From: Marsupella aquatica
Taxonomy: Eukaryota > Plantae > Marchantiophyta
Direction: 5' to 3'
Assembly (NCBI GenBank): GCA_973895155.1
Contig: OZ316891.1
Coordinates: 4,683,708-4,747,707, forward strand
Length of the DNA: 64,000 nt
Positions within the stretch are counted from its first letter, which is position 1. Each line of letters begins with the position of its first letter. This document shows, one piece after another, positions 13,264 through 49,766 of this stretch. The translations under genes and the position numbers were made by a program. The notes under the pieces are model-generated. The model searched no databases. It was not told the DNA's origin and worked only from the letters and a program-made list of their open reading frames with translations.

Positions 13264-14922
13264 CACTAGTACATATTAAGCTGATTTCCGATGCTCAATT
13301 TTTGCGAACAATCGGCGTCCGATTCTTTTAGCATCGGAAATTCCGATTATTAAAAAATGGCAATATGCCATACTCTCGGCTTCGGATGTCTTCATTTCCG
13401 ATATAATTGACAACGAAACCTTTCCGATGCGTTAAAAAACGGATCATATCCGTTAGAAAACACATCGGATCCCTCAACAGAAACTTTGATTAATATGTCC
13501 GATGTTTTTTGTAACGAAAATGATGTGCGTTACAATATTGATCGGAAACTTTCCGTAGTTAATAATAACGGATATTATATCCGATTGTGCTAACATGGCA
13601 AAGTCCGATGTTGGGAGAATGGGAAAGTCCGATGCTGGGAGTATGGGAAAGTCCGATGCTAGAAGAATGGGAAAGTCCGATGCTGGAAGAATGGGAAAGT
13701 CCGATGCTAGAAGAATGAGAAAGTCCGATGCTGGGAGTATGGGAAAGTCTGGTTATGACAAAAAGAAAATTTTTGATTGTGTTAGAATGAAAAGTTTTGA
13801 TGTGTTAGATGGGGTATGTGGTTGCACCGACATACTCTTCCCAAAAGATGCAATCATTCTTGCATGCATGAATAACTTCATACTTGAGGCAAATGGACTT
13901 GAGTGTTGTTTTTGCCTCATTCCAAGACCCAACATATTGTTCCCTTACGGAAATATGTGCTCAACATGCCAAGTCCAAAATACATCATCTAGAAGGAGGT
14001 TGCTTGTCCCATGTAGTCTTTGTTGCAAGTCCAACAACAACATAGTTGATAAAAGATGAGACAATCAGGAGCCATTGACGCTGAGGCTTTGGAAGGACCA
14101 AAATATCATCCATAACTAATAAGCCATAATTATCCCATATCAAATCTAATGAACGAGGGCTTTACAATCGATGAATGACCCCTGCCAGATTTCTATTGGT
14201 TTCTCCTAGGGGAATGTAATAGGGTAACTAGAATAGGTCACTTGATGCAAAGATCTAATCTCATGATAGAGAAAAATGGATCAAGAATGGGTCCAAATTA
14301 TGGGTCTTAGTAAACTCACAAGTGTATAAAATCCCCAAACACTCTAAGTCAAACAACAAAAGTGCTAGGCTTGCATGTACAATGTAAGGAATAAGAACCA
14401 CAAAGTTAAGCTCATGTTGGAGGAATAGCAATTGGGATGGGTGACCAATTAGTTGAGAAAATTTGAAGAGTTCACATGTCAAGGGAGATGGGCACCTAGC
14501 TCATAGTTCCAAATGAAAGTAGAAACCCAATTAAAGGAAGAGATGGGTGACCTGAGCATGTCGCGTCCGCTGAAATGCATATCCCATTTTGATTGCTTCG
14601 GACTTTCCCATTCTCCTAGCATCGGACTTTCCCATTCTCTCACCATCGGACTTTCCCATTCTCCTAGCATCGGACTTTCCCATTCTCTCACCATCGGACT
14701 TTCCCATTCTCCTAGCATCGGACTTTCCCATTCTCCCACCATCAGACTTTCCCATTCTCCCACCATCGGACTTTCCGATAGAAGTCCGATTGTCGATATC
14801 CGATACTATAAAAATGGCATGTTGCAATGCTAGTAGTATCGGATATACGGTTTTTCAAATTTTATTTTACAAAGGCGTCCGATGTGGAGAGAATCGGAAA
14901 AAGGAGGTAAAATGTACTAGTG
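13264..14922. mobile_element. Non-autonomous CACTA element related to element A
   Basis: TIR CACTAGTACAT / ATGTACTAGTG; 3-bp TSD AAG; TCCGAT/ATCGGA subterminal motifs; opposed 24-bp tandem arrays at ~13596-13750 and ~14599-14778; decayed TnpD fragment on the minus strand ~13800-14070 similar to 33405-33660. Confidence 0.93.
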
Positions 14923-15219: not shown

Positions 15220-15523
15220 CTCGGGGGCCTCAATCCAAGGGGTGTCCCATATCACACTCAAAGTTTTGGGGGAATAAACACCCTAAAAATTAAGTCAATA
15301 AAGTTTTTTTTAGGAATTTTTTCCCCTAACTTAATGGAATATTCCAAGAATATTCTCATAATTGATTTTAAAAACCCTATGATTCTTCTTATTCTCAAAA
15401 TTGGATCAAAATAACCCTAATGTTCTTCAACAAAAATTTTAAAAGTTTTTTACTAAACCCAATAAAAAAACCCTATACTTATTCGCGCGTGATGGGTCAG
15501 AAGAAAAGAAGTGAGGACCCCGG
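15220..15523. mobile_element. MITE (CTCGGGGGCC family), uninterrupted copy
   Basis: Near-identical to 8011-8071 plus 9273-9524; TIR CTCGGGGGCCTCA / TGAGGACCCCGG; imperfect TSD GTCTGATT / GTCCTGATT. Confidence 0.8.
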
Positions 15524-20997: not shown

Positions 20998-21229
20998 ATG
21001 TCGACTTCTGAGAGTTTGGAGACAGATTCCAACTCTGACTTGTCTTCCTCTGAGGGGAACATTCCTCCTCCCCCTCAACAGCCTCAAGCACCCCCTCCAT
21101 TAGGCCCTATTCCATGCTGGTGTCTTAGATGACATAAAGGACTGGTGGTTCATCAAGCGTGGCAGTCCATTGAACACATCGAAAACTATGGTCGACATGA
21201 GGGTGATTTACCGGGATTCAGCTCGCCAG
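20998..21229 (+). pseudogene. Element A exon 1: transposase-associated N-terminal Zn-binding segment
   Basis: MSTSESLETDS...IPCWCLR*...HIENYGRH, homologous to B exon 1 (LCDCTRC...HIER) and to the C TnpD N-terminus (RCPCTQC...HLLRHERH); one in-frame stop; donor CAG/GTATT. Confidence 0.7.
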
Positions 21230-21939
21230 GTATTGCTTGACATGAACTCCGCTATATATGATACACTATCATAATAGTTGGCTGGTTTGAGACCTTTTAG
21301 GAGACAAGTATTAATTTTTGTTTGTTTATGATTGAATAGGTGCGTTGTAGGGCCCGTCCCACTACTACATATTTGCCAATTTTGCGAAGGCATTTTACAA
21401 GAGGAAGAAAGCTTTGCAAGATTAATCTCATCGCTAAACTTGCGATCCGATACGCATCGCACTTAGCGAATCTACACACATCGCAACACATAATTGCGAA
21501 ACTTAGACCATCGCAACATTTTACGACACTTCAGGTATCGCAAAACATTTCCGAAGCAATTACCATTGAACAAGTTAGTGATCTTTACCGCTTCGCAAAT
21601 TCATTGAGATGCGCTGGAAAACTAAATGGTTGCAAATATTTAAGCATCTCAAAATATTTTGCGAGTCTTATTGTCTCGCAAATGAGCGATGTTTGTGGAA
21701 TATATGGCTAACTTGCGATAGTAATAGGCTCGCAAATCCTGTGCCTGTCTAGGGTCTCATTTTGTGAATGTTTTGGTTTCGCAACTTTGAGATGGTGGTA
21801 TCTTCGGAAGTTTGCGATGAGGGAATGATGGCAATTAGGGAGCAGTTAAGTATCGCAAATGTAGCGATGAGTTTGCGGGTGTAGGGGTTTCGCAAGATGT
21901 TTCGCAAAATATTATGAGCGCTTCAAAGAGGTGGAAAAG

Positions 21940-22560
21940 GAATGGGATTGGGGAGGGAGGGTAAAGGAGGGTGGATACATGTAATTTTTAGGGAGGGACA
22001 ATGAAAAGGAGGAGGAAGGGAATGGGGCTAGGAGGGACAAGGAACGGAGGGATCCAAGAGGGAGGATACAGGTTTAGGGGGCACAAGGAAATGAGGGAGG
22101 AGGAAGGGTATGTAGATATAGTTTTAGGGAGGGTTTGGATTTAGGGAGTGAAAATAAAAAGGAGGGAGTTTAGGGTTTAGAGGGACAAGGAAAGGAGGGA
22201 GGGTATTGGTTTAGAGAGGGACAAGGAAATGAGGGAGGTTTAAGGGTATAGGTTTAGGAGGGAGGAGAGAAGCTAGGTTGTATAGGTAAGAGTGGGGGAC
22301 AGGGGTGGAAAGTAAGGAAAGTATAGGGTTGAAATAGAAAGCCAGGGGTTGGGACAAGGAGAGGAAGGAGGAAGGAGGGTTTAATAAGAGGGACAGACAA
22401 TGAAAGAAAGGAGGAGGGAGGTGGGTACAAGTAATAAGGAGAACAGCTAGGGGGGATTAGGAAAGCATGGAGGATAGAGGACTACAAGCAACATGAGTTT
22501 TCTTTGCATAAAGTCTACCAAAAGGTGTGGTGAGTGTGGGGTAGGGATGGGAGATATAGA
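21940..22560. repeat. Purine-rich low-complexity tract (GGAGGG / GGGACAAGGAA units)
   Basis: Almost C-free G/A-rich strand 3' of the B TnpD gene. Confidence 0.7.
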
Positions 22561-22711
22561 AAACAACATTTGAAAATGATATACTTACAAAACATAAGTT
22601 TATTGATAATTGAGAAGCACATATTTCTCCATTCTACCGAGAAGAGAAATCTTCATATCATCAAATCTAACTATATATCCGTGTAGCTATATATCCACAA
22701 ACACAGACCCC

Positions 22712-25700
22712 TCAAACTTGGTCCTCATCATCTTCAGGTTGGGACACAACCAGAATATCAGGCTTTTCCCCAACGATTGAACGAGACCGTGGCACATATG
22801 TGATGACAAGTGACCATTCCTCTGGGTTTGGGGGGTATGGAATATAGAAACATTGTTCCACATGACTTGGAAAAGTGAACGGCTCTGATGTTTGCCAATG
22901 AGATGGCTGGAAACTAGTGGCAGACGTCTTCAGTCGTGTAAATCCACACTCATCTTGAACCACAGTAGGATTGTTACCTGCAAGGTTCACTTTGAACCAC
23001 TTGCACTTGAAGACATACTCTTCAAACTTTGATTGTGCATCATAAGATATCACTAGAATCTCTTCTACCTTTCCATAATGTGGCACAACATCTCGAATAA
23101 TATTTGTGTCATGGCGACTGCTGCGGGAATCTTGAGAGAATTGTCCTTGAACTCCACAATCAAAGGTACGACCCCTCTTCTCATCAAGGGAAGAAATCCT
23201 AAAATCCATCAAACCATAAGGATATGTTACACAAAAATAGACACAAACATATTCCAATTAATTGAACACACCAAGAATCTGCCTCTTCAATATACGTGCT
23301 TGTATTACAAATGAATTAAATTAAACCAAGTGATTCAAATCAAAGGTTACTAAGGTAGATGGAGATCACCTGAAATGTCTTCCTTGTGTCCACATTGCTG
23401 TCCTTGTTGTAACCACTCTCAAGGGACCATGAACAATGGTACGAACATCATCTGTGATAGTTGGAAAATGTAATACACTCTCTCCCCTGACCACCATGTC
23501 ATCCACCTCAACTAACTTCTCCTTCATATAGTCAAGGTACTTTGGAAAAATCCTTGGTCTTGTGCTGTTACTTTTGGCATCCTCATAGAAATTTCTCCAT
23601 TCTTCCATGATAGTGCTGTTACTCAACATGAATGTGGTCAGTTGTTTCACCTCCACTGGTGTCAACATGCGAGTTTTCCTAGCACCTATTAAACGATCCT
23701 CTTCATCTTCCCTCTCCTCTACCCAAGTACGGGGAGAGGTACAATCAATTGTGGCCAATATGTTACTACAATAGAACATACTCTCAGCTGCTAAGTATCC
23801 TGTAGCCATGCTTCCCTCAACCCATGCACGGTTACGTACATAACCTTTTAACACTGCCATGTATCGTTCTAGCCAATACATCCACCGACAATGCATAGGA
23901 CCTGCAATGGCCACCTCATGAACAAGATGAACAAGTAAATGCACTTGACAGTCAAAAAAGGAAGGAGGAAGGGCCTTCTCCAACTTGCATACCACCTCTG
24001 CTGCCAAAACCTCCATCCCAGGGATCTCATCAGTATATATCTCCTTAGAGCATACCCATCTCAATAGTTTTCCCAATGACCAAAGGGCATCTTGCACTTC
24101 TTCACTTGCCAAACCTATTATGGCCACAGGCAATATGTGCTGCAATAACCTATGGTAGTCATGTGTCTTGAGATACCTTGGCCACTTATGATTGTCCTCC
24201 ATCCCAAAGGCCTTTCGGAGATTGGCACCATAACCAGTAGGAAACTGCATGTCTCCTATGCGATTCTGAAACTCCCTTCTCTGGCCAATAGGAAGCACCC
24301 ATGGAGCTGAAGGTCGATGCTCGATCCCTGTGATAGGATCACTTATGACCCACACGTCTGGATGCATCTCAAGATCCTCACAAGCCTCCCTGAAGTTAGT
24401 GTCTTTCTCTCCATAGAAAGCCTTTATCAAAGCCTTTCCCACATTTCCCTCAATGTGCATGGGGTCTAATAGATGGCGGATCTTCAACTCACCCCAATAG
24501 GGCAAAGTGGTTAATATACTCCACCTTGTCAAGCCACTACCGTCAAATTGCATGGGATCCTCTGGGTCTGCCACTCTTGCAGCCATGTCTTTCCAGTGTG
24601 TAAAAGTTGTTGGCTTAGGTACATCACGCTCGTCACCAAAGGGCATATCAATAGAGGAAAATAGTAGTGGGTCACGCCTCATCTGATGTCCCATTGGAAG
24701 AAACTTTGTATGCCCAAGATAAACAATCTTGCGAAGATGTGATGAATACTTGGCTACATCACCAAGGCTTGGGCCACAAGTGGAGCAAGCCTTGTAGCCT
24801 TGGGTTTGCAACCCACTCACAAAGCCAAATCCTGGTCATATAAACACACATTATGTTAGGATTAGCACATGGAAATGAGGGGATACCATGCATTAGAATA
24901 TGATGCATTTAAACAACAAAGTTCTTACCTGGGTAGTCATGCATGGTCCACATACAAACCCCTTTGAGTTTGAAAACCCGTGGGGTACCCCTTGTAGTCT
25001 TTCGACCATCATATGCCCATACTCCTTCCCATAATTTCTGGAGTTCCTGAACCAGTAATGTCAAATAGGTGTCCATGTTCTTCACCTTCTTTGGCCCTGG
25101 GATAATCAAAGATAGCAACAAAAAACCCTTTTTCATGGACAACCATGGTGGAAGGTTGTAATTCATGAGAACCACAGGCCAGACCGATGTAGGTCTCCCC
25201 TTCCCTCCAAGTGAATCAGGGCTAACTCCATCTGATGCCAACCCCAGTCGCACATGCCGAGGGTCACGCTCAAAATCTGGCCATGTTGATTCCAAATGTT
25301 TATGAGCAGGAGAGTCAACTGGTAATCGCATGACACCGGGCTCCGAACGATGTTTCTTGTGCCATACCATCAACTCGGCCAAGTCAGAACATCTATACAT
25401 GTGCAACAAGCGAGGAATTATGGGGAACCAACAAACTGCTTTCCTTGGTACCTTCTGGGTTAGCATGTTTGGCTCATACCGTGGCTCATGACACACTGTG
25501 CATTCTATGATATGGGCTGTATCCCCGTGAAATAACATGCAATCATTCACACATGCATGAATAATATGGTAATCCATACCAATGGATGAGAGAACCTTCT
25601 TTGCATCCTTCCAGGTCCCTGGCAACACATTCTCCGAGGGTAACATCAAGTCATGACAATATTCAAATATATCTGATAACATAGAATTGCTTGTCTTGTG

Positions 25701-26105
25701 TTTGGCTTGAATGTTCAAGAGCCCCAATATGGCAGAAAGACGGCTCAATCGAGCACCCTCAAAAATAGGTGTTTGAGCATGTTCCTCTGCCTCTTTCCAT
25801 TGTTGTTGTCCCTCTGGAGTATGTTGTGGCCGTGGGTCATTTGAAGGGCCAACCTCATGACCAATGTGAGGCACATCATCCTCAACATCAGCACCAAACC
25901 AATCAACCATGAAGTCATCCATGGCTCTATCTTGATCATGCATGACCTGGTCATCAGTCCGAGGTGCGGCTTCCTCATCAGCACCACCTACATCATTACT
26001 TGATGAGGAATCACCCTCTGATGGTTCTCCCTCTTCTGGCATACCCATCTCCCGATATGTTGCTCTCAACCTTCGTGGTAACATTTGTTGAGATGGTTGC
26101 GCATT
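22712..26105 (-). CDS. Element B TnpD transposase (Transposase_21 / DUF4218 / DUF4216-type; exons ~26105-24929, 24831-23370, ~23198-22712)
   Basis: IHACVNDCMLF, DPRHVRLGLASDG, SVWPVVLMNYNLPPW, WTMHDYPG, HLLDPMHIEGNV, LKTHDYHRLLQ, PPSFFDCQVHLLVHL, RWMYWLERYM, FKCKWF, EPFTFPSHVEQCFY; frames open. Confidence 0.95.
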
Positions 26106-26316
26106 CTATGCACATTACAACCAAAAAACCTCCTCATGTATATTTGACCAAGTACAACAAATTAAAATAGACTTAACACCATTCATTCAAGACATTAAGA
26201 ATTAAAGTAAATGCATGGGCTAAAACCTTATTACTCCAAAATGAGCCCAAAGGCCATATATATAATAGTAAATGGGAAGTCCAAAATAGGTGCAAGAGGA
26301 TAAAGGACATGATTTC

Positions 26317-27147
26317 CTAATCCCACTCATAGTGTGTGAATAACTCATCTCCTGCTCTAATGGTCCTAGTAGCAAGAACTAAGCAATGGTCCTTATGATA
26401 TGTCGTGCCATATGGTGCCGGCATTGGACCATCAGTAAAAACCCACTCACAATTGGCCCTATGCTTGGGCCGAGTCCCCACAGTACTATTTATGAAACCA
26501 ACAATATTCCCATTACGTATGGGATCACCATCTATCACCCGCTGCTCACTATACCTTCTAGTGCTACCATCAAAAGTATCCATCTCTAGAGCATATGTTT
26601 TCCACTCAGGATGTTGTGCAAGGATCATGTTCCAATGTCTTCTCTTGTAGATGGGTCCACCGTATGGGAACAAAGTAGGACCCTCTCTACCACGAACACT
26701 TGACCCACCCTCCTCATCCATGATGATATCCTCACAAGCAAATACTCCATATCCATGTCTCTCTCCAAGTGTGGAAGTTTTCACAATCCAACGTCTACCC
26801 CAAACCACAATCTCCTCATCAAAATCTGTAAAATAAGGCAAGCCAAGAGTGATAGGTTCCCAATCCTTCATGATAGAGGCACACTTGCCAGTGAATGAAC
26901 AAACACCCCACCTACCCTGAACTAGTGTTCTGGATGGGTCATTGGGTGCTCGTGGCCTCCTGTTGGATTGGGGCCTGGACCGGGGTCTTCGTGTCTCAAT
27001 GGGCACATGAGGGTGTTCCCCTTCTGTCCCATGACTGGTACTAATTCCCAAACCCAAGGCTTGTGAAAGTGCATTGCCTATAGCATCTAAAACTCCTTGT
27101 GATGGGACATAGGGTGGTGGTGTCACCAATCTACGCATACTGGATCC
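26317..27147 (-). CDS. Element B SET-domain exon (putative lysine methyltransferase)
   Basis: SET motifs WIVKTSTLGERHGYGVFACEDI, LFPYGGPIY, IDGDP..NGNIVGFINS..ANCEW, VLATRTIRAGDELFTHYEW; no pre- or post-SET; open frame of 273+ aa. Confidence 0.88.
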   Translation of the reverse strand, partial: GSSMRRLVTPPPYVPSQGVLDAIGNALSQALGLGISTSHGTEGEHPHVPIETRRPRSRPQSNRRPRAPNDPSRTLVQGRWGVCSFTGKCASIMKDWEPITLGLPYFTDFDEEIVVWGRRWIVKTSTLGERHGYGVFACEDIIMDEEGGSSVRGREGPTLFPYGGPIYKRRHWNMILAQHPEWKTYALEMDTFDGSTRRYSEQRVIDGDPIRNGNIVGFINSTVGTRPKHRANCEWVFTDGPMPAPYGTTYHKDHCLVLATRTIRAGDELFTHYEWD

Positions 27148-27258
27148 CTATTCCATGCAAACACCCACAAACAACCAAATGTGTAAACCATATGTGTAAA
27201 CATTGATTCACCTCTAAAAATAACAGTAAAGAACGGCAATCAATTGAAACAAACTTAC

Positions 27259-27514
27259 CATATGGGATGAAGAAGCCCCGGGAGTAAGACCTCTATGACG
27301 TCCATCTCTCAATATGTTGAGCACACACATAAGATTTTTGAGAAATTTGGCCCACACATCTGGTGCAGTCACAAAGTCTTCGGGGTGGACCACGAGGACC
27401 AGTAACCTCGGGCTGAGGAGGAGGGGGTATATCGTCATCGGAGGAGTACTCACTACTGGATAGTTCAGAGGAAGAGGACATATCCACTGCCACATTACAT
27501 TGCATGTAGGGCAT
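27259..27514 (-). pseudogene. Element B exon 1: transposase-associated N-terminal segment (small frameshift)
   Basis: MSSSSELSSSEYSSDDDIPPPP...RRLCDCTRC...CAQHIER / GRHRGLTPGASSSHM followed by donor GTAAGT. Confidence 0.7.
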
Positions 27515-27634
27515 GATTAGGAAAAATTAGGCCATATATAAAGCGATTTTTAAAAAAATGAACTCAAAAAACAATTAGGTTGGTTTATACATGGGGTTTT
27601 ATTACCCTTTTATATTTGTTAGCATGAAACCCAA

Positions 27635-28640
27635 ATTAAGGTGAGTGTCATGCAAGAAGAAACCACATTATAACCTTTGGGAAAATTGTAATACCCTATG
27701 TCCTAAGTGAGGTTAGATTATTACCTGAATGAGACCCGGGCTCAACAGTGCCTATAGGTCACGTGGCTTTTGGAACATTTGCCAAATCTAGAAGTAGGAG
27801 GAAAATACTGGAAACAAAATGTAAGTTTGGATGGTAATTAGCAGCCGTCAAGTTGTGGAATCTTAGACATTTACCCACATATATCATGGCACAACAAAGA
27901 AGGGCAAGCATAAAAATCTGTACTAACAACATTGACTGTATACATGATGTTATACCTTTTAGATGCCCGGGTTCCCACAATGCATATGCATTAGACAAAA
28001 GTTGAGGTAGTAGTGTTGGCCCTGCGTTGTATCATGATTACATGGGTTTTCCCCTCAATTGTTAGCATAAAACCCTAAACCCTAAACCCTTATCCCCCCT
28101 CGAGTGAAAGGTGAGTGTCATGCAATAAAAACCCACCCTAGACCCCTGGGAAAACTCTAAAGGCCTAAGCCCAGAATGAAGTTGGACAATAATTACCTGA
28201 ATGAGATCCGGACTCAATAGTGCCTGTAGGTCGTGTGGCTCATTGAACATGAGCTGAATCTAGAAGCACGAGGAAAATACTGGAAACAAAAAAGTAAGTT
28301 TGGATAGCCATTAGCTTCTCTCAAGTTGTAGACCCCCAAACATGTGCATATAGATATTCTTGCACAACAAAGAAGGGCAAGGTTTATGAACAATCTCTTT
28401 ATCAAACCCTGCTAACATACATGTTTAAATATACCTTTTAGATGTCCGGGTTCCCACAATGCATATGCATTAGACAAAAGTTGAGGAAGCAGTGATGGTC
28501 CTGCACTGGATCATGATTACATGGGATTTCCCTCAATTGTTAGCATAAAAACCAAAACCTCATCCCGCTTCAAGTGAAAGGTGAGTGTCATGCAATAAAA
28601 ACCCACCATAGACCCTTGGGAACTCTAAAAGCGTAAGCCA
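27635..28640. repeat. ~470-bp tandem repeat (2+ copies) in the intergenic region of B
   Basis: AAGGTGAGTGTCATGCAA recurs at ~27638, ~28108 and ~28578 with long matching blocks (e.g. GGGTTCCCACAATGCATATGCATTAGACAAAAGTTGAGG twice). Confidence 0.85.
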
Positions 28641-29289
28641 ATGAAGTTAGCAAAAACCTAAATGGTCAATTCCCTTCAACCATCCTATGCTTCTCTCTAC
28701 CATAATTATATGCCACCCCTCTTGGTTACCCTCCTAAGATACCATAAAAGTAACCCAAGATACTATAAAACTGAAACCTCTCTTTCAAACCCTCCTAAGT
28801 TGGCCTAAACCCCAAAACCCAAAACATAAAACCCCTCCTAGCTCTTACCCTCCAATACATATAACCCCAACCTTCATAAATAAAACCCCCCTGCAAACCC
28901 AAAACATAAAACCCCTCGTATCTAAGCCAATCTAAGCCCAACCTTCACAAAAGAAACCCTCCCCTAACCAGGCCAAACCCCCTCCTCTTACCCTGCAATA
29001 TAACTCCTTCAATTTTCTAACCCCCCCAATCCTTATCTCATCACATCCCACTAAAATGCAACATAATCCTCTACATCTACCCCATTTAATGTTCATAAGC
29101 CCCCTTAGTATCCCTAACAACACATCAAATACGCATGCGAGACGGGGGTTATGGCAAAACCAAATAGCGAAGGCTTTTGCGAATCTTGAAGCTTCGCAAA
29201 GATAGAATTTGTGAAGCTTTTTGCGAAGGCCGATGCATCGCAAACTGTGATGCGAAACGAATCGCAAAGCCCAATATTTTGAATCCTTA

Positions 29290-31220
29290 TGGATTGCCGA
29301 GCAAGCAGGTCTCACTGCAGGGCAAGCAGCAGTGGAGGAGGATGCAAGGAAGGCAGCAGAGCAGGCGGCTGCTGAGAGGAAGCGAAAGAGGGACGAGAGA
29401 GCTCAGGCTGGAGTGCTCTCGCCTCAAGCATTGGAAAAGAAGAGGAGGAAAGATGAGAGAGACCTGATCAGGAAACAGAGGGAGGAGCAAAGAAAGAAGG
29501 AGGCAGCAAGGAGGAAGTTGCCTCTGATTACTTTAGAGGATGAGGGGATTCCCACCGAGCTTGCTTACAATGGGGCCAAGAGCACAATCAGGCACATTGT
29601 ATCCACAAATTTTGCAAGAGGAGTCGAGTGGGGCACTCGCTCAAAGGCAGAGCAGAAGTGAGTCATCAATCAGGTGAAAGATGCATTTCGAAATGGAGGA
29701 GAGATGGATTCACAGTGACTTGCTGACAAAATTTCAAACTCCATGTCACAAGCTAGATACCATGATAGAATGAAGATCAGGTCTCACCTTAGAGATTTGG
29801 AGGAGTATAGGAATTTGCAGAGGCCGCTGCAATTCTCAGAAGATATCTGGCAGGCCTTCTACCAGACAGAGGTGAAGTTGAAAGCAGCCAGGCTCCTCAA
29901 TGATTTCACAAAGAAGCTGGCAAAGGCTCGAAGGGCAAAGGAGGCCGGGAAGTCTGACCGGGACCTGAAGGTGATGGAGCAGAAGGTAGCCCAGCTCCAG
30001 CAGGTTGTAGCAGAAGTAGGCGATCCACCCAACAAGTTCCTGAAGGCAGCTGAGCGAGTCCGAGACAAGCCCAACATCACCCACAGGCTGGGTCAAGGTG
30101 GCCTCCCCGGCCTCAAAGCAGCATTCGTGAGTGCACCTCCCTCTCCTCCCTTGACTTCTTGCTACTCCAATTCCTATTCCAACACACCTGCAATGAGCCA
30201 ACTCTTTCTTGCATTTCCACCAAGTAGTTACAATTAGACTTGTTGTGTCAGATTAGGTCACGTACAGTTGCTTCCCTCTCGGGTTTTTGCCATGACAGAG
30301 TTTGCGATACATTTGCGATGCAGGTAGCTTCGCAAATCCTTTGCAAACCTTATTATGGCCTTTTTTTGCTTACGTTTGCGAAGGCATTGCGAAGATGTTC
30401 GCATCGCAACCAGCTTCGCAAACGTAATTGTCCTTATGATTGCGAAGCTGGCGCCTTCGCAAAATTTCAAAAATTTGAATTTTTAAATTTTCCGATCGTT
30501 TAAGTGTTCTTTGAGGGTCTTCCCCATATATGCCACCCTCCATAACCCCAAAACCTTGATGCACCACCCCACCAGCCCCAACAAACCCCCTAATTTTTAG
30601 AAGCCATGTGAATCGGGTTATGGGTTGGTGTTAACCCAATTGTGCTGGTTTTGTTTTGGCTTAGTACAAGAGGTACAAGAGGAAGATTACGGCGGCTGAG
30701 ATGGAGGTGGGCCAGAAACATGGGAAGGAGCATCTCTTTCAGCAAGTTGATGAATTATTGGTGAGAATTTTTAGGTTATTACATTCATTGCAATTTTGAA
30801 TGAATATCTCTTTTGTTCACACTTGTAAAGAATATGAGACTAACAGACACCCTGGTTTGCTAATGGAAGCAGGGAGGGGAGGATGGTGACTCCCATACCG
30901 AGGGTGGCACCGATAGTAGTGATGAGGATGTGGAGGGGACAGGGGAGGGGAGCACAGCTCCTGCTACTCAAGCCAGGCCAACTAGCACTGGAGACCAGTC
31001 ATTTGCATCAGCACATTCCAGTGGTGCTGGGGGTGGTAGCGCGGCAAGCCAGGGCAGTGGAGGTGGGGATGAGGATGAGGATGAGGATGAGGATGAGGGT
31101 GACCCCGAGGGTGACCAAGAGGAGGAGGAAGTCCAGGTTGCACCCCCCCCAAGAGCACACAAGGGCAAGGAGAAGGCCAAGGGGAAGAAGGCAAGGAGGG
31201 GCAGGAACACTCCTTTCTAG
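29290..31220 (+). pseudogene. Element B TnpA/PTTA-like gene with premature stops
   Basis: Aligns with the A gene (LSPQALEKKRR vs LSPRQKEKSLRR; ITHRLGQGGLPGLKAAF vs VTHRMGQGGSQRLKADF; same three-exon layout); TGA stops at ~29659 and ~29716. Confidence 0.75.
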
Positions 31221-32011
31221 CTCGATGTAGACAAGTTGTAGCTAGAGCACTTACATCGAGTTCACATGTATAGCGATCAGCATGCATGGCCGTGGCACTT
31301 TACCTAAGGGTTTTTACCCTTCCATTTTGTAACTTTTGTACTTTTTCAGTAATGCCATTTTAATTGCGGCAGATTGGGTCAACATCACTTTCCTCCCTCC
31401 TTCAAAACCCATGAATGGTCTCCCTCACCCTCACCCTAACCCAAATACACAAAAACCCATGAAATATACATTTTGCAAAGCTTTTGAGAACCAACCCCCA
31501 TCTCAAAGAGCCACGGTGAACATATCGCAACCATTCCGAGGAGAAACGCATCGCAACACTTGCGATGTTGTCTAAATCACAACCCTAGCGAAGACTTACT
31601 CTCCACACGTTTGCGAGTTAAATGCCTTCGCAACAAAGCGGTCATCCGCTTCTCGCAATCTTACGAGTTTGTTTGCATCGCAAGTTATAGAGAAATTTAA
31701 CATCGGAAATTGCGATGTAAATGTTATCGCAACGCGAGCGATTCATTTGTTCTCGCAAAATAATGAAATTTGTCGTTTCTCAATATTTGCAAGGACAGTG
31801 CCGTTGCAACGTTGCGGAGATGTTGCGACGTATTTAGAATCGCAAGTTGCGAAGTAGTTGCGAAGGGCCGTTTGCGAAGAATTTGAGATGGGAAGTAGCG
31901 AAGACGTTGCGATGCGAGTAAGTTCGCAAATTGGGTATTTCGGATTTTGTTTCCTTTGTATGATGCGAAGGGTGGTGGTTCGCAAAAGAGGTGCATAGTG
32001 TTGTAGTGTCC

Positions 32012-32954
32012 TCCATTGGTCTCTAGTCAACTATGGCATGATGCATTCCTAGCTGGTGCTAGACAGTTGCTTGCATCATCAGTTGAAGACCCCGAGCAAT
32101 CATGTACCCCCGCACATGTTCAGGCAGATGTTGTTCATGAACCCATAGTGGTAGAGTTGGGGCATGGTAGGGATGATGCACCGCCCCCTACTAGGGTTCT
32201 ACGCACAAGACCATGTTCTCATAGACGTTGACAACAGCATGTAGTTCTAGACACAGACCCATCCCATGAGCACTTTAGAAGGAGTGTTATGCCTCCACCA
32301 GGGGAGGAGTACATAGAAGTTGAAGGGAGGTTGGGCTTGTCATATGTGACGGGAAAGGCAATCAGTGTCTTCAAGGATTTTGACCCTGAGAGTTTTGCGA
32401 TTCCTCGTGGCCTAGCCATTGACATCCCTGTACATATATGGGGTCGGCAATGGATAGTGAAGGCATCGACCCTTGTCGGGGAGGTTGGGTTAGGCTTATT
32501 TGCTTTGGAGGACATTGAGGTCCCTCCAAAGCCTTGGCGTCGTGGCTATGATGGGGAACACCTTTTCCCTTACATTGGGCCTGTGTATACATCCAAGAGT
32601 TGGAACATCCTCTTGCGCCAACATCCAGCTTGGGGGGTATATGCATTGCAGATGGGCTCAGACCCAGATGAGGTCCTAAGGAGGCCTTGGCATTGTAGGA
32701 TGATTGATGGGGACCCTGTGCGTTCAGATAACATAGCTGGGTACATCAATAGTACACATGGTAGAGGGAGTGGACTCCAGCCTAATGTAGAGTGGGCTCA
32801 GATTTTTGGCCCACCCACTCCGCCTTACTATGTCACACATATGGATGATCATGTTATGACAGTAGCCATACGGACCATTAGGGCGGGTGATGAGTTTTTT
32901 TGTGACTATCAATGGAACGCACCCACGATGGGCATTCGATCTGGCCACACTTAG
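32012..32954 (+). pseudogene. Element A SET-domain exon (begins 21340-21359, split by B; one premature TGA at 32229-32231)
   Basis: WIVKASTLVGEVGLGLFALEDI, LFPYIGPVY, IDGDPVRSDNIAGYINS, PNVEW, VAIRTIRAGDEFFCDYQW; clearly homologous to 26317-27147. Confidence 0.88.
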
Positions 32955-34810
32955 CACATATGTGTATTCCCCATTTTTGAAGTAATATAAGAATATTGTA
33001 GTTTTTTTAGGAACCCATGGGCTAACTCAAACGTATATATATGTTTTGTGCGTTGTATGATAGAATGCATATGTTGAGCCGGATGTTGGGGTGTTACCAC
33101 GAGCTATGCGCCAACACCTTGTGCAGGCCATGGAAGATTGGCGACATGCCTCTCTACCACCAGATGGCGATCCGGATGTTCCAGAGCAGGAACCAGATGC
33201 CTCCCAATCAAGAGTTGATGAAGATAGGGCCATGGATGACTTGATGCACCAATTCTATGACATAGAGGATGGTGATCATGATATGGCTGATGGGGAGAAC
33301 ATTGAGGTCCCACTTCCACATCAAGAAGGTTCAAGGAGTTCAGCCTCCAAACAGTGGGAGGAAGCACGTCAACATGCGCAAACTCGGATATTTGATGGAT
33401 CACGCTTGTCTCGTCTTTCAGCAATAATGTTGTTGTTGAACTTGCAGCAAAGACATGGAGCAAGCAACCTACTTCTTGATGATCTCTTTCGGACATTGCA
33501 TGATTGTATCTTGCCAGAAGGAAACAACTTGCCAGACTCTTGGAAAGAGGCAAAGAAGGTGTTGAAGTCCATAGGTCTACAATACGAAGTCATACATGCT
33601 TGCGTGAATGATTGCGTTCTGTTTAGAGGCACTTATAAAGATGCAACGTCATGTCCTACATGTGAGAAGCCGAGGTATCGTGAGGACATGTTGACGGGAA
33701 AAGTTCCTCAGAAGGTCATGAGGTACTTTCCTCTTATACCTCGTTTGCGCCACCAATATAGATGTGCTGAGTTGGCTGAGTATATGGTTTGGCATTCCCA
33801 AAATCGCTCAGATATGAGTTCACAACCACCCACCATGCACATGATGGTTGACTCCCCTGCAAACAAGTTTGTGGAGGAGAGATGGGGTGAGTTCCGAACT
33901 GACCCACGTCATGTTCGCCCCCTGGGCCCCCAGCCTTTGTATTGATAAGGGGTATACGTGCGTACAGCCCCTTACCACATACCCCTTATTATTTTTGGTC
34001 ACTGATAGATATAGCTCTTGTTATTCTTAAAAACTTAATTTTAGAGAATTTAAAAGTCCCTTGCAAAAATTATAAATGTACCATTAATCACATTTAAAAA
34101 GGTCTTAAAATATTATAAATTTTTGAAAAATATTGAAAAATATACAAAACTCATTAAAGGTATACCATAGAAAAATAGGTATCTCTATATAAAATAGTGT
34201 TGGAATGGAGAAGAAGACTCAACTTTAACACATATAAGAGTGTGTTCTTATGTTCTAGCACATGTAAGAGTGCTTCACTATCACATGCAATAGTGATTAC
34301 AAATCTATCTATTGTCTATAAGAGCATATATGTAAAAGTACTTATACAACTATTTTCTAATAATTTTATAAAAGCACTATTTCTAGAAAACATTTTGCTG
34401 TAAACATGTAAGAGTGTTTGCAGAAGTTCTCAACTAAGAGGCCGGGCACACATGTAAGTTTAGTGCATACAGAACTCCTATCAGAACTAAGAGAACACTG
34501 TGGAATTTATATGTCCTCCTCTTGTCTTCCATCTTCAAACGATCTTGTCTTCCTTCTTCAAAAGATCCTGAGTGAACACAATCAAAAAAATTTACATCAA
34601 AAACAGTAATGATTTGTCCAAATTAAACTACTATGTGGAGTAGTATGTAAGCCCCTAATGAGCATATGTTTTACTGTGTCATATCAAATGGGATATCAAA
34701 TTGTTCACAAAAAAGCAAACAGGATCTTAAGCACTTGCCTTAGAAAAAATCTTGTCTTCTTGCATGGCTGAATTCTCAGAATATCACCATTTACCCCTCT
34801 GTTGTACCAA

Positions 34811-37800
34811 TCACGTATGGGCTTTAGCAAAATCATCCAGCAAATTTGCATCAGCGGGATGCAAATGAAAAACATTTGGAGTTGTGGGATTCACTGATAG
34901 TGTCACGTTTGATATCACACAATCCAAATCGATCCACTGAGGATCACAAACATTGTAAGCAAATCTGTGCTTACTATTTCCAATCCTTGAAAACCATTCA
35001 AAACGAACTCTTACAGCTTCTTCACCGCCAGGCTTATCAAGTAAATCCACTGATTGTCTTGTTCTACCCATCACCCGACCCTGATATTTTCGTTGGATGC
35101 ATTGTACCCTCCCTATCCACCAAGTGTACTTAAGGGTATCAGGTACTGTGGTAACGTTCACAGGTTCTCCCCTTGGCTTTTTTGGATTGGGAGCAGAAGA
35201 TCCATTTGTTGTCCCACATTCTTTCCTTGCTCTTTTCCCTTTCATGGCTTTTTGTATAGCCTCAGTGGCTCTTGTGGCCCGAGTCTGTACTGTTGTATCA
35301 GCAAAGAGAACTCCACAATCACTGTACCCACAGTCATGAACATGGTGACTGCTCTTGCTCGATCTTTGGGTGCATCAACTAAATTGTTGAAGTACAAGCT
35401 CTGTTTCACTCTAGTCAAACGATCTTTACTTACATTGGGGTTACCAACTAGTTGGCTTACCAATGTGCTCTTGTATATGGTCCGACCATCAAAACTCACA
35501 GTTGGTCTGATGTCAAGCTAGAACAGGTTGTCCATACACCAAGTCTGAATGCATTTCAGACATAACAGCAGAACAGTGATCTCCTACTATTGCAATGCTT
35601 GGCCTTTCACTATCTTCAATGATCTCACTACCTTCTGCCATTGCAATATCAGCTGGAAGTGCTAGGATGGTTACATTAGCTGCAATTTGCCTGATCTCCC
35701 CGCCTGATTCTTCATCATCACTATCAACAAGTGCAAGATCCTCCACCTTAACATCACACCATCCTCCAAACTTGGACCCTTTTTTTTCAGTAATCCAAGG
35801 TGATTCCCACCATACTTTATCCCTACAAGATGTAGATGGATTCATCAGCAACTCGATTCCTACAGTCTGGGCTAATAGTAACCCTTCTTTTAGGGCTATC
35901 ACAACTTCCTCATTGGTTTCAATACCTGTGTAGTCTACAGGATTAACAGAAATCGAAGTACCAACTTGTACCGGTACCGGATGCAATTTCATCCAAATAT
36001 TGCAATGCTTCTTGTGACTTTTTCCAGCCCCTCTGATCCCTTTGCTGAGATCCATTGCAGCCAACCTATTCAGAGATGTTGCACAGTCAATCAACTCAGA
36101 GAAATCATAACTACGCTCATTCCCTTTCATTCCTCCTACTTTGGAGAAAAACTGTTCGCATGCATCAGATCCTGTCAAATGCAATGGCACATTTGGCAAA
36201 TGTCTGAAATTATCCCTAAATTGGATAATTAGAAGTACTACAAAGTGCACAGACATCTGAATGTCAAGAAACGTCTGCATAGGGACACAACTCACAGTAA
36301 AGTTGATTGTTGTTGTGTTACCTCCAACACCATGATTTCCATGAAAACACCATAGTCGCCAAAGGCGGAAAAAGAAACTAACTTTGGCACAAAGCACAAC
36401 TCGCTCTCTCAAGGTGAGACAAGGATTCATAAAGATATCCAAGTAATCACCACATATTGTGAGATACATCTCAGTCCCTAGAGTTCGCTCAACTCTTGCA
36501 TCTTTCCTTTCACGAAGCATTCTTAGTGCCTTCACAACTTTTCTAATACATAGTCGTTGTGCACTAGCCCAATTCTGTCTATCATTCCGTGTAACATCAC
36601 CTTTGTTCAACCCATGATCCAAGTTGCTATATAAACGTTGGAGAGTGTCCAAGTTACTGATTCCAGCCACCTCTGTTCCAAGCTTCAAAGTTCTGGCAGC
36701 AGAATCAAGTGGGTTTATTAACTTCTTTCCATTGTGAATGTAATCCTGATCATGTAACCCAACAGCATGTGTATGACGTCCATTGGTAGTGAATGAGTGG
36801 CTCAATAGCCAACCTTCCCATCTCAGATTTTGTCTTGGCCCTTGATATGAGCTTTGACCAGTGTAGTCTTCCAGCATCAGCTTCCTCCTTCGTGCATCTC
36901 CATCACTAGCATGACCCACGAGAGGACCAACTGAGTCTAGACAATATTTAGCCCACAGTGTGTCTGTGGACTTCCATTGTTGACTGACAAAATCTGCAGT
37001 AAACTTACCGCATGTACTCATAGCTACCATGCAAAATTTAGGAAATCTTTCTGCAAGAGGATTTACTACTATACATCTGGCCTGGTTTCCAATTTTGTAA
37101 TTCTCAAAGGTATCAGTGATTTTGCTGAAACCTTCCTCTCCTGCTCCAACCTTTATTGTCAAGCCAACCACACATTGATGATCCTCTTTCAACCCACAAA
37201 ACCCCAATAATGTGTCATGTTTTGGTTGCCATCTGCAACACAGCCATCCACAATAGTGGTCAGCCACAGACCTACTGGGGAGAGGGATAATAGACAAAAA
37301 TTTGCTATAGTTTAGGGTATTGTCAAGGAAATGAAATCACCTTACTGTCCGCTTAAGACATGTCTCATCTTCTGCCAAATAGCATGGCACAGGACCTGTG
37401 ATCCCCATCCTCTGCTTTAGTTGAGAGTATACAGCAGCAACAAACTTGAACTGGTCAGCATGTAAACCAGGCCTAAATATAGCCATGGCCCTCCTGTCTC
37501 GTTGAAGGGTGTTCAGGCTAGGGCCTAATGCATTACTTTGCAAGCAGTCCACTACACGCCTGCCACCGTGTTGGAACAATATGATCTGGGAAAGAAGTTT
37601 AGTGCCAGGCCGAAAGGTGTTTCCTTCTTTCTTCCTATTAAGGTTTGCAGCTACATCTCGCAACAAGTCCCATAGGGCCTCTCTCCCACCAAATGCACCA
37701 CGCTGGTGAGCCAAGACTATGTCATTGCAGAACTTGTATAGGTCTTTCCTATTTCTAGACTCTTTGCAAAGATCTCTCAAAGTGGGGACTCGGGCTCCCA

Positions 37801-39553
37801 GCATGCACAGGCGGTGCTGCTGAGCTCTGAGACGTTTTTTGAGAGACGAAATGTTTCTCTTGTAAGTTTTAGCTTGTTCTTGGATCTCAGGAATTGTGAG
37901 ATATGCCAACCGTCTACCCCTACTGGTTCCTCGAGTACCTCTTTTCTCTACTGCAATGTCCTCTCTAAAGGCTCTTAAACAAAAATCACCCATCCTTGCA
38001 ATACTGTAACATTCTTCACAAGTCAGATCCTGAAAACCACCAAGAAGTCGTGATCCTCTACTATAGTTCACATGCCTGAATAGTCCTTCTACCGAACAAG
38101 ATTCTTGGCCTAGAAGACACCACACCTCTGCCTTTACCCCTGGCTCTGAGTACCATGCTCCGTCAAACTTTGGCTGATCTAATAGGATATCCTTGATAGG
38201 CCTGATTACTGCACCATACTGAACTGAGTTCCGCCACAATCCCCAACACAACAACGACCAAGGGTGGGGTTTACCTGCATCTCCTGTCATATCCCCTGAA
38301 TTGCCTGAAACTCCACTGCAACCACTACCTCGAACTGTCCCTCCTGACCGGCTACTGGAAGCAATATCTCTAGCCTACCGGGTTAAGAACCCATTAATCG
38401 TCCTTTGGCGAACATCCCTCTTATCATCCTTAGGAGGTCTGCCTGACCTTCCTGACAGTACTGGTGCACCAGGCGGTGGCTTCAAACTCCTAGCCATTGT
38501 TGATAGATGATTTGTAGAGATGCAATGGGATTTCAGATTCACCTCCAGATTACGTTGCTTGGGTACCAAAGTGAACACATCGGAGCAGAAATGACACGCT
38601 ACTCTGAACCGCTCTAACTTCTCCATAGGCTCTTTCTGAACATCACCTATAATGTAGAAGGTAGGGTTGGACACAGGCTCAGATTCATTGAGCCTTTCAA
38701 CAATCTGAACGTGCATGTCAAGAGTTGCACAATCATTCAAGGAAGAAGCTGCAGCCCTACGACTGATTTCAGCAGAGTCTACTCTCTGCCCCCTGTTATG
38801 TGCCACATTTTTGGCATGCTTTGGGGTGATCAAATGCTTCTGCTTGAAATTTGTGAAACAATTAGTGACAGACACCCTATCCATAACATACTTAGATGAT
38901 CCAGAAATATTAGTGTTGCACTCACAACACTCTATCTTACCACATGGAACACCACTAGTGTCCCAAGTTTTGACTTTCCACTTGTGGTCCTCACACTTTA
39001 TGAAGGCCATATGCTCCTTCAACTTGTCAACACTAGACACCCAGAGCTTGGCCAGGTCGTTTGACATAGTTGTTGACTGGAAACTCACATGTGGATCATC
39101 ATCCACAGGTACATGCAGATGCTCATTAGGTATAGGTGAAACTGGGGGTGAAACAGGCAGAGGCAAGTCCTCCTGCCCCCATTGAAACTCAGGCTCCACC
39201 CTAACTTCAGTGTGCCACTCTCCATCACTAATGCTCTTACTCAGAGCCTCAGCATTGGAAGCATTGCTGCTTCCAACATCAACCCCCACTTTTTGGACAG
39301 GCATAGACTGTATTTTTGGGATGATGACAATCTTTCCATCACAATCATCAATGAGATTGTCTTTTTCCCAAGCAGCACGCAATCTACAACCTCCCACGCT
39401 ATCAATAAAATCAAAATCAAAGTCCCAAAGTTCCAAATCCACCATTTTCTGTCTAGCATCCGCCAAGGTCCATCCAGGGAGACAACTAATAGTCCCAGAG
39501 TGTTTTCTGGTCCCTGACTCATGGTCAGCGAGAAATACAGGCACAGGCGGCAT
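34811..39553 (-). pseudogene. DDE transposase, P-element/THAP9-like, with two N-terminal C2H2-like fingers
   Basis: LAEDET (D1), GHASDGD (D2), DQDYIHNGKKLINPL (D-x-x-H), GSDACEQFFSKVGG (E); intron ~37340-37232; one in-frame TAG at 38375-38377 and two frameshifts near 35515 and 35325; CxxC...H..H fingers IECCECN and VACHFCS. Confidence 0.7.
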
Positions 39554-42500
39554 GCAAAAATCACAGATTCAGACCTGCAAACAATACATTGGACAGGTCA
39601 CATGCAAGCATTTCCCCACAATATACACAAGTCAATTACACAATCAACACTATCAAAACTTTTCTCCAAACATTTAATTTTGGCCAATGTGGAATAGTCT
39701 TCATGGTGTGGGGAATAAGCCCACAACCAATGGAATTCCACTTGGTCATCTCAGGATGAACCACTACCACTGAAACCCTGTGTGATGGAATGTCACAACA
39801 GGCTAACATGCAACATTCATGCAAGCTTCCATCTGCCATTTTAGCAGTCAATAGACCACAGACATTTACCGTAGGCAAATATGTATAGAGAGGTCAAGGA
39901 GGGAGTTGTCTATTTCGGTAGGGATACAGTTTCCCACCTACGTCAACCAAAAAGTCTGTGGCCAGAGGATTTTCCAGACGTCCTGGATTTCATCAAAACA
40001 TTCCTTTCTATTTTCCTTGTAGAAGTTTTCTTCATACAACAGAAGCCCCTTCACCACATGACAAAAGTGAAGAATGAAGGTCTTCACTGCACTGGATTTA
40101 ATGAGGAGAAATATAACATTTCTATTGTACTTGACATATTTGTCCCATCTAATGTAAATCATTCTATCGCCTTGATCCACAAAGAAATGATGCACGTTCA
40201 AGTAATATTCTTTGCAGAGAAGCTCTGCAATATGTATAATTAATTTTGAATTCAACCTCTTCAACTGTAACAGAAGATCCCCTCTGCCATAATCAGGCTC
40301 GGGTTATATCCACTTCATGTATGGATAAATCTCCAACATTGCTTGCTAAAACCAGGCAGAAGGCAATGAGTTATTAAATCTAAACTGTGACCTCCCCAAT
40401 CAAATACCCTAGTACAAAACACCTACAACAGCCCACTGCTTGGGAGACCACATCCATTGGACCAACCCCCAAGAGAGCCTTGCCCCATCCCGGCTATTGC
40501 TCTTGGTGATTGGCTTCTACAGATCCAAGTCAGTTTTCTCCGAGACATCTCGGGTGGGAAGGGCGGACCCTTTGCTGAGAAGGACTCCAATATCAATGTA
40601 AGCACTAGAGGGATTGGGGTCTGTAACATGCTCATGTGTGCTTAGCATGTACAGTCGGGTTGCCCACACTCCAATTCCCTCCACTCAAACACAGTGGACT
40701 TGGACTCAGTCCCTATCAACCCTAAGTGCCCCAAGAAATTGGATTCCTTGACAATCCCGGACCAACCAAACCCTAACACTTTGGGCTCTAATCAGGAATG
40801 CCATTGGCAATCAACTCCAAGGCCCCCCCCCCTCCCAGGCAACCTGCTCTCTCATTCAAGGGGCGCTAGACTGCTAAGTCATCACTTCCAGCAAGTCTCC
40901 ACCAGGGGCATTAGTTCCCTGGGGTCCCAATGAACTTGAGGAACCTGCAGACCCACACTTGCAATAGCAGGAAGGGACAATGCAAAAAAGACATGCAAAA
41001 TTGAAACCTATGACTTACCTCAACAACACACAATGCCTGTCAGTTAGCGTCTATGGAAACATTATAGATACAGTAATCCAGAAGGAAATAGGACAAAAAT
41101 CAAAATTGATTTGATACCTTGTGATGGTGGAACCCAACACTTGGGGGCGTCTGTCCTTCCTGACTCCCTTCCTGTGACTTCAGAGGAGTGTATGAATATC
41201 TGTGTAAATGACACCAAAAAATGAGTTGAAGGAATATCTTTAAAAATAGAAAATAACCTGTTTGCTTGCAATTCCCTCCAACAGCAAAGCTTCTCACAGA
41301 CAAGCAACAACTGGATGATTCCCTTCAAATGTAGCAAGACCTTGGGTGCACTACCAACAGGAGCAATCTAACCTCCCGGACTGCAATCGCCTTGCGCGCA
41401 ACTAACCTCATGGACTGCAATCGCCTGCAGTCTTTTGAGGTGGCATGGACAGCGCTGACCCAAACAAAAAACTCTGCAATCACAAAAAAAAATTCAGCTA
41501 AAGAAAAATAGCACTCCACAACTCCACAGGCATCGACACCCACATTAAACAGGAAGCCCTAGACCGACATTAAATTGAATGCAAATAGAGACAATGAATG
41601 CAACAAAAGAGAGCAAGTGAACACAAGCACATTGATTGAGCACATTGGCAAAAGTAAGGTCGTAACCGGGGTCGCAACAAACTGCAGCTCGATCAGTCGC
41701 AGCAAACTGTAGCTCAGTTCGATCAGTCGCAGCAACACCCAACGTTGTGAATTTGGGACCCTTGAAGGTTGGATTGCCTGTAGAAGCAGGCGCATGGAGG
41801 TCTGCTGCACCTTCCTTCCAAGGAAAGTGGCAATTCACCAAAAAACTCTGCACACAATGAAACAACAAATGATCCAAGAGCAATTAATTCAAAAGCTGAG
41901 CAGGAAATGGAGATTGGTTTAGAAAATGTTCATAAAGCACCCACATTGCCTATTATCAAATGTGATGGGCTTCATACCTTGGAAATCAATTTACTGAGTG
42001 GACGTCGACCGCGTAGATCAACTAAGCGCAACCGCTCCCTCCACACTGCATAATCATTTCACTCAGCAGACCTGGACCAGGTAGGTGAACCCAAGCACAA
42101 CAGGTCCCTCCACTACACCTGAAAAAAACAAAATTAGTAGGGAAATAATTAGTGAAGATATAACTACAATGAAGTGGACCTGAGAGTAGTTCAGAGAGCA
42201 AAATGGTCTGAAAACAGAGTGAAGGCAAATCAAGTGTGAAAGCAACTAAGGCCAGACAGAATTTTCTCTCAGATCTTTTAGAACGGACTTCACACTGCAT
42301 AATGGATCCTAAATTGGGCCTTACTCACACCGATCACAATTGCAAAGTGGACAGAGCCTTACTCACAAACCAAAATAGTCCTCAGAAGTTTGTGCTTGAT
42401 CATGATCCAAACCGGGGCAAAATCTGCACAACAAGAGTATCCGCCAATGAGCTTTGTAGAATCAATGGCAGGAAACATAAAAGTAACTGGAAAGAGATAG

Positions 42501-49589: not shown

Positions 49590-49766
49590 AGCTTCTGCAC
49601 AGCACCCACAACCAAACAGGGAGAATCAGCACACTAAATTCAAAGTATCAATCAATTTCATGCATATCCAACTATCCTAAACATCATTCCAGGCAGCAAT
49701 TCCCGTTCTGTGACTCTGTGCAGGTAGTCATCCTCAACCTCATACTTGCCAATCGCCAGCTGTTGC

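Follow-up and report, generated by a model that had tools for sequence, protein, structure and literature searches.

The window analysed here, the whole 64,000-nucleotide stretch of DNA from the liverwort Marsupella aquatica, holds a transposase gene of the CACTA type in which a SET-fold exon follows the first coding exon and precedes the transposase body. With its layout conserved and purifying selection acting between lineages, this nested exon is a real feature of the transposon family. The splice signals further suggest that, by alternative splicing, one gene would probably give either the transposase TnpD or a short protein that joins exon 1 to the SET domain. The gene belongs to element B, whose features are the following (basis of each assignment in brackets):

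21360..32008, no strand assigned: element B, a 10.6-kb CACTA/EnSpm transposon (CACTAC ends, TCC duplication, subterminal TTGCGA repeats)
27259..27481, minus strand: exon 1, with an acidic Ser-rich start, the motif C-x-C-x2-C-x13-H-x3-Y-G-R-H and the donor ATG/GTAAGT (sequence, family contigs, profile)
27148..27258, minus strand: predicted intron 1a, 111 nt, GT..AG, 45% T (cross-lineage conservation)
26317..27147, minus strand: SET exon with its own stop, comprising a conserved helix, an Arg-rich linker and a divergent SET domain (GxG, YxG, N-S, ELxxxY, tail YEWD) (Pfam, alignment, structure model)
26106..26316, minus strand: 211-nt spacer rich in T, predicted both to hold the 3' end of the SET message and to form the 3' portion of the long intron, which ends in GCATAG (cross-lineage conservation)
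24929..26105, minus strand: TnpD exon 2, start of Transposase_21, phase-0 acceptor (Pfam)
23370..24831, minus strand: TnpD exon 3, remainder of Transposase_21 and DUF4218 (Pfam)
22712..23198, minus strand: TnpD exon 4, DUF4216 (Pfam)
29251..31230, plus strand: second gene, head to head with TnpD, with two in-frame stops in the window copy (TnpA-like by position)
27638..28648, no strand assigned: tandem units of about 470 nt upstream of exon 1, with splice-like sites (repeat analysis)

The termini of element B, CACTACTA at 21360 and CACTACAA at 32008, are CACTA ends in inverted orientation, and a TCC target duplication flanks them (21357-21359 and 32009-32011). TTGCGA/TCGCAA occurs 16 times in the left end, 18 times in the right end and once within 22000-29100. 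Internal TTGCGA clusters are found around the TnpA-like gene (five copies at 29150-29300, nine at 30280-30480) and resemble the internal binding-site clusters of anti-silencing systems. On the minus strand, exon 1 is followed by a 111-nt intron, the SET exon, a 211-nt spacer and three TnpD exons that match Transposase_21, DUF4218 and DUF4216 in Pfam; one metagenome locus (L016, 2628-2773) has a TnpD intron that element B lacks. Regarding the second gene, it has no significant Pfam match, and we infer from its position that it is TnpA-like; it occurs in element B, in element A (see below) and in related loci, and most of the family depth in contigs of the DNA runs differs from the window copy at 29659 and 29718. 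The tandem units are likely to be a 5' leader or promoter region. Within the 211-nt spacer there is no canonical AATAAA, and a GTAATA past the SET stop (26229-26234, minus strand), which recurs in the spacers of element A and of the metagenome locus L007, possibly serves as an additional donor or belongs to a 3'-end signal. Contigs from all four DNA runs contain the empty site of element B, and the flanks at 21360 vary; element B is thus one of many copies.

The insertion site of element B is itself a SET exon, that of element A, which represents a second family with the same layout:

20998..21229, plus strand: element A exon 1, same motif, donor CAG/GTATTG, 232 nt in the window (sequence, family contigs)
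21230..21339, plus strand: element A predicted intron 1a, 110 nt, ending GAATAG (cross-lineage comparison)
21340..32954, plus strand: SET exon of element A, interrupted by element B and lying at 21340-21359 and 32012-32954 (Pfam SET, 28 bits)
33064..33945, plus strand: element A TnpD body after the acceptor GATAG/AAT, truncated (sequence)

Element A thus runs, as element B does, from exon 1 through a 110-nt intron, the SET exon and a 109-nt spacer to TnpD, and the SET domains of the two elements share 42-45% identity.

The sequence-only reading had proposed that exon 1 of element B ends at a phase-0 donor facing two phase-0 acceptors, one opening the SET exon and the other the TnpD body. All three sites were found on the minus strand, each as a single occurrence in the window: the donor CAT ATG/GTAAGT, with its GT at 27258, the SET acceptor GAATAG/GGA TCC, with the exon beginning at 27147, and the TnpD acceptor GCATAG/AAT GCG, with the exon beginning at 26105. 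The donor phase stands for the family but not for the copy in the window, where ATG (27481) to donor measures 223 nt (phase 1) and where a 2-nt gap at 27303 leads the CxCxxC frame to an early stop, the TAG at 27295-27293. Indeed, two extra letters at 27303 dominate the family contigs of all four DNA runs (1207/1353, 6479/6556, 3915/4032 and 4265/6305 of the depth, i.e., 68-99%) and bring the exon to 225 nt, so that the donor is in phase 0 at the family level. The window copy of element B is, by this frameshift in exon 1, dead for both isoforms. For element A, the family contigs differ from the window exon 1 by minus three and plus two letters, which gives 231 nt and phase 0. An AT present in exon 1 of the family contigs is absent from both window copies (at 21215 and 27303), owing either to slippage in old copies or to an assembly tendency.

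In a single copy neither acceptor is proven, as both are merely the TAG ahead of each open reading frame, and the proof has to come from conservation. Among 36 metagenome loci, 20 span exon 1-SET and 20 span SET-TnpD; in these loci, mostly of one subfamily with 93-96% identity, the donor GT is kept in 20/20, the SET acceptor AG in 18/20 and the TnpD acceptor AG in 19/20. Since most of the loci belong to one subfamily, the independent units are four, namely B, A, the L007 type and L006. Each of these lineages has a GT..AG intron of 110-117 nt with 40-50% T ending in AATAG, keeps both phases and has the far acceptor ATAG/AAT. The interior of the intron is no closer between B and A than between shuffled sequences (z 0.5), with z 2.3 for B against L007, and just past both acceptors the length changes come in multiples of three, one of them being a six-letter change ahead of the first Met after an acceptor in L006. 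Exon 1 lies upstream of SET in 19/20 loci and TnpD downstream in 20 of the 23 loci with room for it; in the three exceptions, it is the SET that is broken off. Neither spliced junction is present in any of the 36 loci, as expected of DNA, and the contigs from the four DNA runs cover the introns. The proposal that one donor pairs with two alternative in-frame acceptors is thereby strengthened, with signals and phase kept in four lineages, the spacing to TnpD matching that of a third transposon, element C, and gene models joining exon 1 to SET.

Element C (45592-61892) is a 16.3-kb CACTA with CACTAGTAGAAACC ends and a CCG duplication, whose insertion site is the TnpD of a further CACTA. It was said to carry the same N-terminal segment contiguous with TnpD, and it does hold CxCxxC and Transposase_21 in one open reading frame. 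The Cys/His spacing of exon 1 is that found at the start of this unbroken TnpD, and a profile of exon 1 picks the N-terminal CxCxxC of element C at 4.3 bits, above 1000/1000 shuffles (best shuffle 3.7). When exon 1 is spliced to TnpD, the distance from the Cys to PIFEG is 150 residues in B and 144 in A, compared with 160 in the contiguous element C and 426 with SET included. This modest but consistent evidence from profile and spacing suggests that exon 1 is the N-terminus of TnpD. Exon 1 gave no Pfam match in 11/11 proteins, Transpos_assoc (PF13963) included, and element C reaches PF13963 below the cut-off (E 1.8e-4); moreover, in the structure model of a homologue (P0002), exon 1 and the linker have a pLDDT mostly below 50 apart from one helix. 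DNA or zinc binding by exon 1 is hence putative. A weak search found no long protein carrying the exon 1 region and none carrying the first 260 residues of TnpD exon 2, so that the case for the exon 1-TnpD isoform is one of conservation.

Among named relatives, gene models from Calypogeia fissa and Sphagnum come nearest to the SET reading frame, with up to 69% identity over most of its length. Gene models, which are predictions, join exon 1 to SET in Sphagnum jensenii, S. troendelagicum, S. balticum, S. fallax and S. compactum, in Calypogeia fissa and in Riccia sorocarpa. The C. fissa model makes the join at the same junction as element B, and P0037 has this same SSHM/GSSMRR junction. KAH8930834.1 of S. 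fallax is an example of an intact exon 1-SET protein. P0069, from a Logan contig only, combines the exon 1 motif with SET in a single frame and could be an mRNA or an intron-less copy. Among 32 representatives with a long N-terminus, the exon 1 motif is present in 6 by pattern and in 7 by profile, and distant SET relatives in Ginkgo, Adiantum and Calypogeia occur without it. Pattern matches in viral contigs (43) and in prokaryote genomes (47) yielded no confirmed relative. Look-alike SET clusters from Streptophyta, haptophytes, giant viruses and Pseudomonadota ('type III effector'), together with viral fold matches, are leads only and give no origin. The Sphagnum and Calypogeia models (P0001, P0002) are 62% identical over the whole fusion, and element B of the window shares 77-80% DNA identity with metagenome loci (L001-L035) that carry Sphagnum-type proteins; from these identities, horizontal transfer between moss and liverwort is possible. 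A three-part exon 1-SET-TnpD protein was considered and rejected, the SET stop being conserved with no common donor before it; such a protein is seen only in models that leave SET part-way (P0020, P0061, P0137, P0144) or run past it (P0114). Hundreds of Sphagnum gene models annotated 'SET domain-containing' (360 members in one cluster) are probably transposon parts.

The 276-aa reading frame at 26317-27147 scores 25.8 bits against the Pfam SET profile (PF00856; cut-off 22.4), and the SET fold is confirmed by Pfam, by AlphaFold and by fold searches. The model of the window SET is weak (pLDDT 59.7), and the one used here is that of P0002 (pLDDT 70.6), with values near 90 over the SET domain. SET proteins fill the top 41 rows of its fold search (Z 11.8, rmsd 2.8-3.0, 124-134 aligned), and Foldseek matches it to SET structures with E 2e-7. 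As Set1, SET7/9, SET8 and EZH2 tie (Z 11.0-11.8, 15-28% identity across classes), no substrate can be read from the fold; most of the top matches are histone methyltransferases, and the non-histone enzymes SET7/9 and SETD6 are also among the matches, as is the SETMAR structure 3bo5. The flanking domains of host KMT classes (E(z), Trx, Ash/Set2, Su(var), ATXR5) were absent from the Pfam scan, and the best hit of a sequence search against solved structures had E 0.29. A patch rich in Arg and poor in Lys lies just ahead of the folded SET (26940-27010; Arg 0.14 vs 0.08, 31 homologues), and the structure model places a conserved helix directly after the SET acceptor; both are possibly a nucleosome anchor, a nuclear signal or a partner site.

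Regarding the catalytic residues, the SET of element B keeps GxG and ELxxxY, with N-S where N-H was expected, as had been read from the letters, and it also keeps YxG. A profile search gave 146 clusters at 50% identity, and among the representatives covering each column, counts that include P0202, an S-layer protein and false match among the 146, GxG is kept in 90/95 and 94/99, Asn in 101/112, Glu in 84/85 and the last Tyr in 78/79. Ser follows the Asn in 104/112, so that N-S is a selected family signature and not decay. Instead of RFINHxCxPN, a motif of SET lysine methyltransferases according to the available part of PMC3980110, the family has G[FY]INS and an insertion (RFINH to GFINS). The domain had also been described as devoid of pre-SET and post-SET, which is right for a Cys-rich pre-SET and for the post-SET segment, but some 45 conserved residues ahead of the core do fold confidently. 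The tail after the last Tyr counts 3 residues in B and at most 10 in 45 of 68 representatives. LegAS4, described as an active H3K14 methyltransferase in the portion of its literature available, aligns weakly with this SET (E 0.33) and has N-F at the N-H place. As far as this weak alignment goes, the His is thus not required for activity, and a departure at N-H excludes the canonical classes rather than activity. The available parts of two sources state that regions flanking SET are needed for activity (PMC3980110) and that the isolated LegAS4 SET binds SAM poorly (PMC10653858); activity of the present SET may likewise need a partner. On balance, we give slightly better than even chances to its being an active enzyme.

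Selection was assessed between element B and six loci. The dN/dS of SET is 0.23-0.29 in 6/6 pairs and that of TnpD 0.085-0.17 over six pairs. For the same lineage pair (26317-27147 versus L001-L016), SET has a dN similar to that of TnpD and a lower dS (about 0.6 vs 0.85-1.3), which may reflect either additional constraint at the RNA level or a SET exon exchanged at a later time. Within one subfamily, dN/dS is 0.41-1.18 (12 pairs), the value expected of dead copies.

In the mechanism that we propose, one pre-mRNA would be transcribed from the divergent promoter region that separates exon 1 from the TnpA-like gene. Joining the exon 1 donor to the near acceptor would make SET the last exon of a message ending in the short T-rich spacer, while joining it to the far acceptor would skip SET and give full TnpD. 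The SET isoform would be a short protein with a zinc motif and a C-terminal SET domain, and its predicted activity is the methylation of lysines on the chromatin of the element. Less firmly, the shared N-terminal motif and the Arg-rich linker may steer this isoform to the DNA of the element or to the transposase complex, where it would write a histone methyl mark favouring element activity, with a partner probably replacing the missing post-SET lid. Taken in full, i.e., with both isoforms made and an active enzyme having chromatin as target, this reading falls just short of an even chance in our estimation, and a histone substrate serving anti-silencing is put forward tentatively, at a little less than that. 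At its widest, and unlikely to hold in every part, the reading would be that of a moss and liverwort CACTA clade in which splice choice switches between DNA cutting and a lidless SET writer that is steered by the transposase N-terminus and marks its own chromatin as active, within an unplaced SET lineage reaching ferns and Ginkgo and maybe moved between mosses and liverworts. If true, this would be the first demonstration of a plant transposon that places histone marks on its own chromatin.

The same two isoforms and an active enzyme could also serve a non-histone substrate, such as TnpD itself, the TnpA-like protein or a host silencing factor, and thereby tune transposition. Such a role would suit a domain whose catalytic residues are kept but whose N-H and post-SET are changed, the presence of SET7/9 and SETD6 among its fold matches, and an N-terminus in common with TnpD that could dock SET on the transposase complex; it sits less well with the predominance of histone methyltransferases at the top of the fold search and with the chromatin-editing cargo described for other transposons in the available text of PMC12730594 and 10.1101/2025.02.11.637652. 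We regard this alternative as rather unlikely. Low probability is also given to a catalytically dead SET within the same two isoforms, one that binds histone tails or silencing enzymes or acts as a decoy for them, with the near acceptor additionally capping the amount of transposase. The absent post-SET lid, the change from RFINH to GFINS and a dN/dS above that of TnpD are all in line with it. Nevertheless, dead SET domains tend to lose GxG, the Asn and the last Tyr, and here these residues are near invariant across clusters sharing less than 50% identity.

Splicing itself might not alternate: exon 1 would always join SET and TnpD would have its own start or leader, or SET would be a nested gene with its own start. 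Indeed, every public exon 1 model seen runs into the SET exon and none directly into TnpD, a Met lies at most 16 codons from the TnpD acceptor in all four lineages and another at codon 4 of the B SET exon, and the GTAATA in the spacers of B, A and L007 is a potential donor. However, length changes leave the frame from each acceptor to the first Met intact, the spliced spacing agrees with element C, family A has no Met ahead of the conserved helix of its SET exon, and intron 1a measures just 110-117 nt; we consider this explanation improbable. As for passive capture of a piece of a host gene that does nothing for the element, CACTA elements do capture gene pieces, element C carries BRCT and PHD pieces, and the high within-subfamily dN/dS could be counted in its favour. 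These values are yet what dead copies give, whereas purifying selection is seen between lineages, the position is fixed in moss and liverwort families and the SET family comprises 146 clusters; this very improbable explanation is largely refuted by the dN/dS analysis.

A CACTA-superfamily element with SET is already known, and so is alternative splicing in En/Spm. According to the available text of PMC13547354 and 10.64898/2026.08.24.746577, maize En/Spm and Arabidopsis EN/SPM3 and EN/SPM7 produce TnpA and TnpD by alternative splicing of one gene. Like En/Spm, the present element is a CACTA in which one transcription unit likely gives the transposase and a second protein, the latter linked in En/Spm to anti-silencing; unlike En/Spm, whose second product is the DNA-binding TnpA, it has a separate, head-to-head TnpA-like gene, and the alternative product would be a SET-fold protein with a coding N-terminal exon in common with TnpD. 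In Plavaka elements of the red alga Bostrychia, of the EnSpm lineage, the accessory gene PAG2 contains SET (PF00856), as described in the available part of 10.1101/2025.02.11.637652. Both are thus elements of the EnSpm/CACTA superfamily with SET as stable cargo; compared by description, PAG2 is a separate accessory gene that also has an adenine DNA methylase domain, whereas here SET lies inside the transposase gene and in land plants. SET genes of HarbingerS and MuDR in Phytophthora (as cited in PMC12730594) and SET-bearing Helitrons (as cited in 10.1101/2025.02.11.637652 and PMC12730594) are further DNA transposons with a SET methyltransferase gene, in other superfamilies and hosts, and these are described in the available text as accessory genes and not as an alternative transposase exon. 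No function is stated there for the transposon-borne SET genes of oomycetes, red algae or Helitrons. VANC of VANDAL21 and TnpA of Spm are sequence-specific anti-silencing regulators that induce hypomethylation, according to the available parts of PMC12730594, 10.64898/2026.08.24.746577 and 10.1101/2025.02.11.637652. An element-encoded protein acting on the chromatin of its own copies is likewise predicted here, and internal motif clusters are also present in element B; unlike these regulators, the predicted protein would be a methyl-writing enzyme. In CSB-PGBD3, with an alternative last exon inside an intron, and in SETMAR, where SET is fused to parts of a transposase, it was a host gene that acquired the transposase, whereas here it is a mobile element that acquired SET. 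A SET exon nested in the first TnpD intron with a common coding N-terminus was not found in the literature searched, which was outside subscription journals, Repbase reports and bioRxiv supplements, and the available text of PMC11982613 and PMC4158355 makes no mention of it.

With relatives that are tractable, this family provides a test case in land plants: its protein is short, its copies are numerous, two junctions are predicted and the catalytic residues are clear. Such a test would show whether a transposon writes its own histone marks and whether splice choice couples these marks to transposase dose. Moreover, the N-S domain, which lacks the lid, provides a natural experiment on the minimal requirements of a SET enzyme.

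Finally, several other features of the window deserve description. The open reading frames of element C include twin BRCT domains (54504-55367) and NSD-like PHD fingers (55951-56658), i.e., chromatin-reader cargo by Pfam. On the minus strand at 35513-39568, three long in-frame reading frames of about 1350 codons, split by two stops and containing Cys/His clusters, have no Pfam match and are perhaps another transposase type. A short non-autonomous CACTA at 13264-14922 has an AAG duplication, 24-nt subterminal arrays and a TnpD fragment resembling that of element A. A near-perfect palindrome of 1.2 kb (8072-9272, 97%) is inserted in a copy of a repeat that also occurs at 15220-15523, and the first 1500 positions of the window (1-1500) hold exons of the host clathrin heavy chain, as identified with Pfam.
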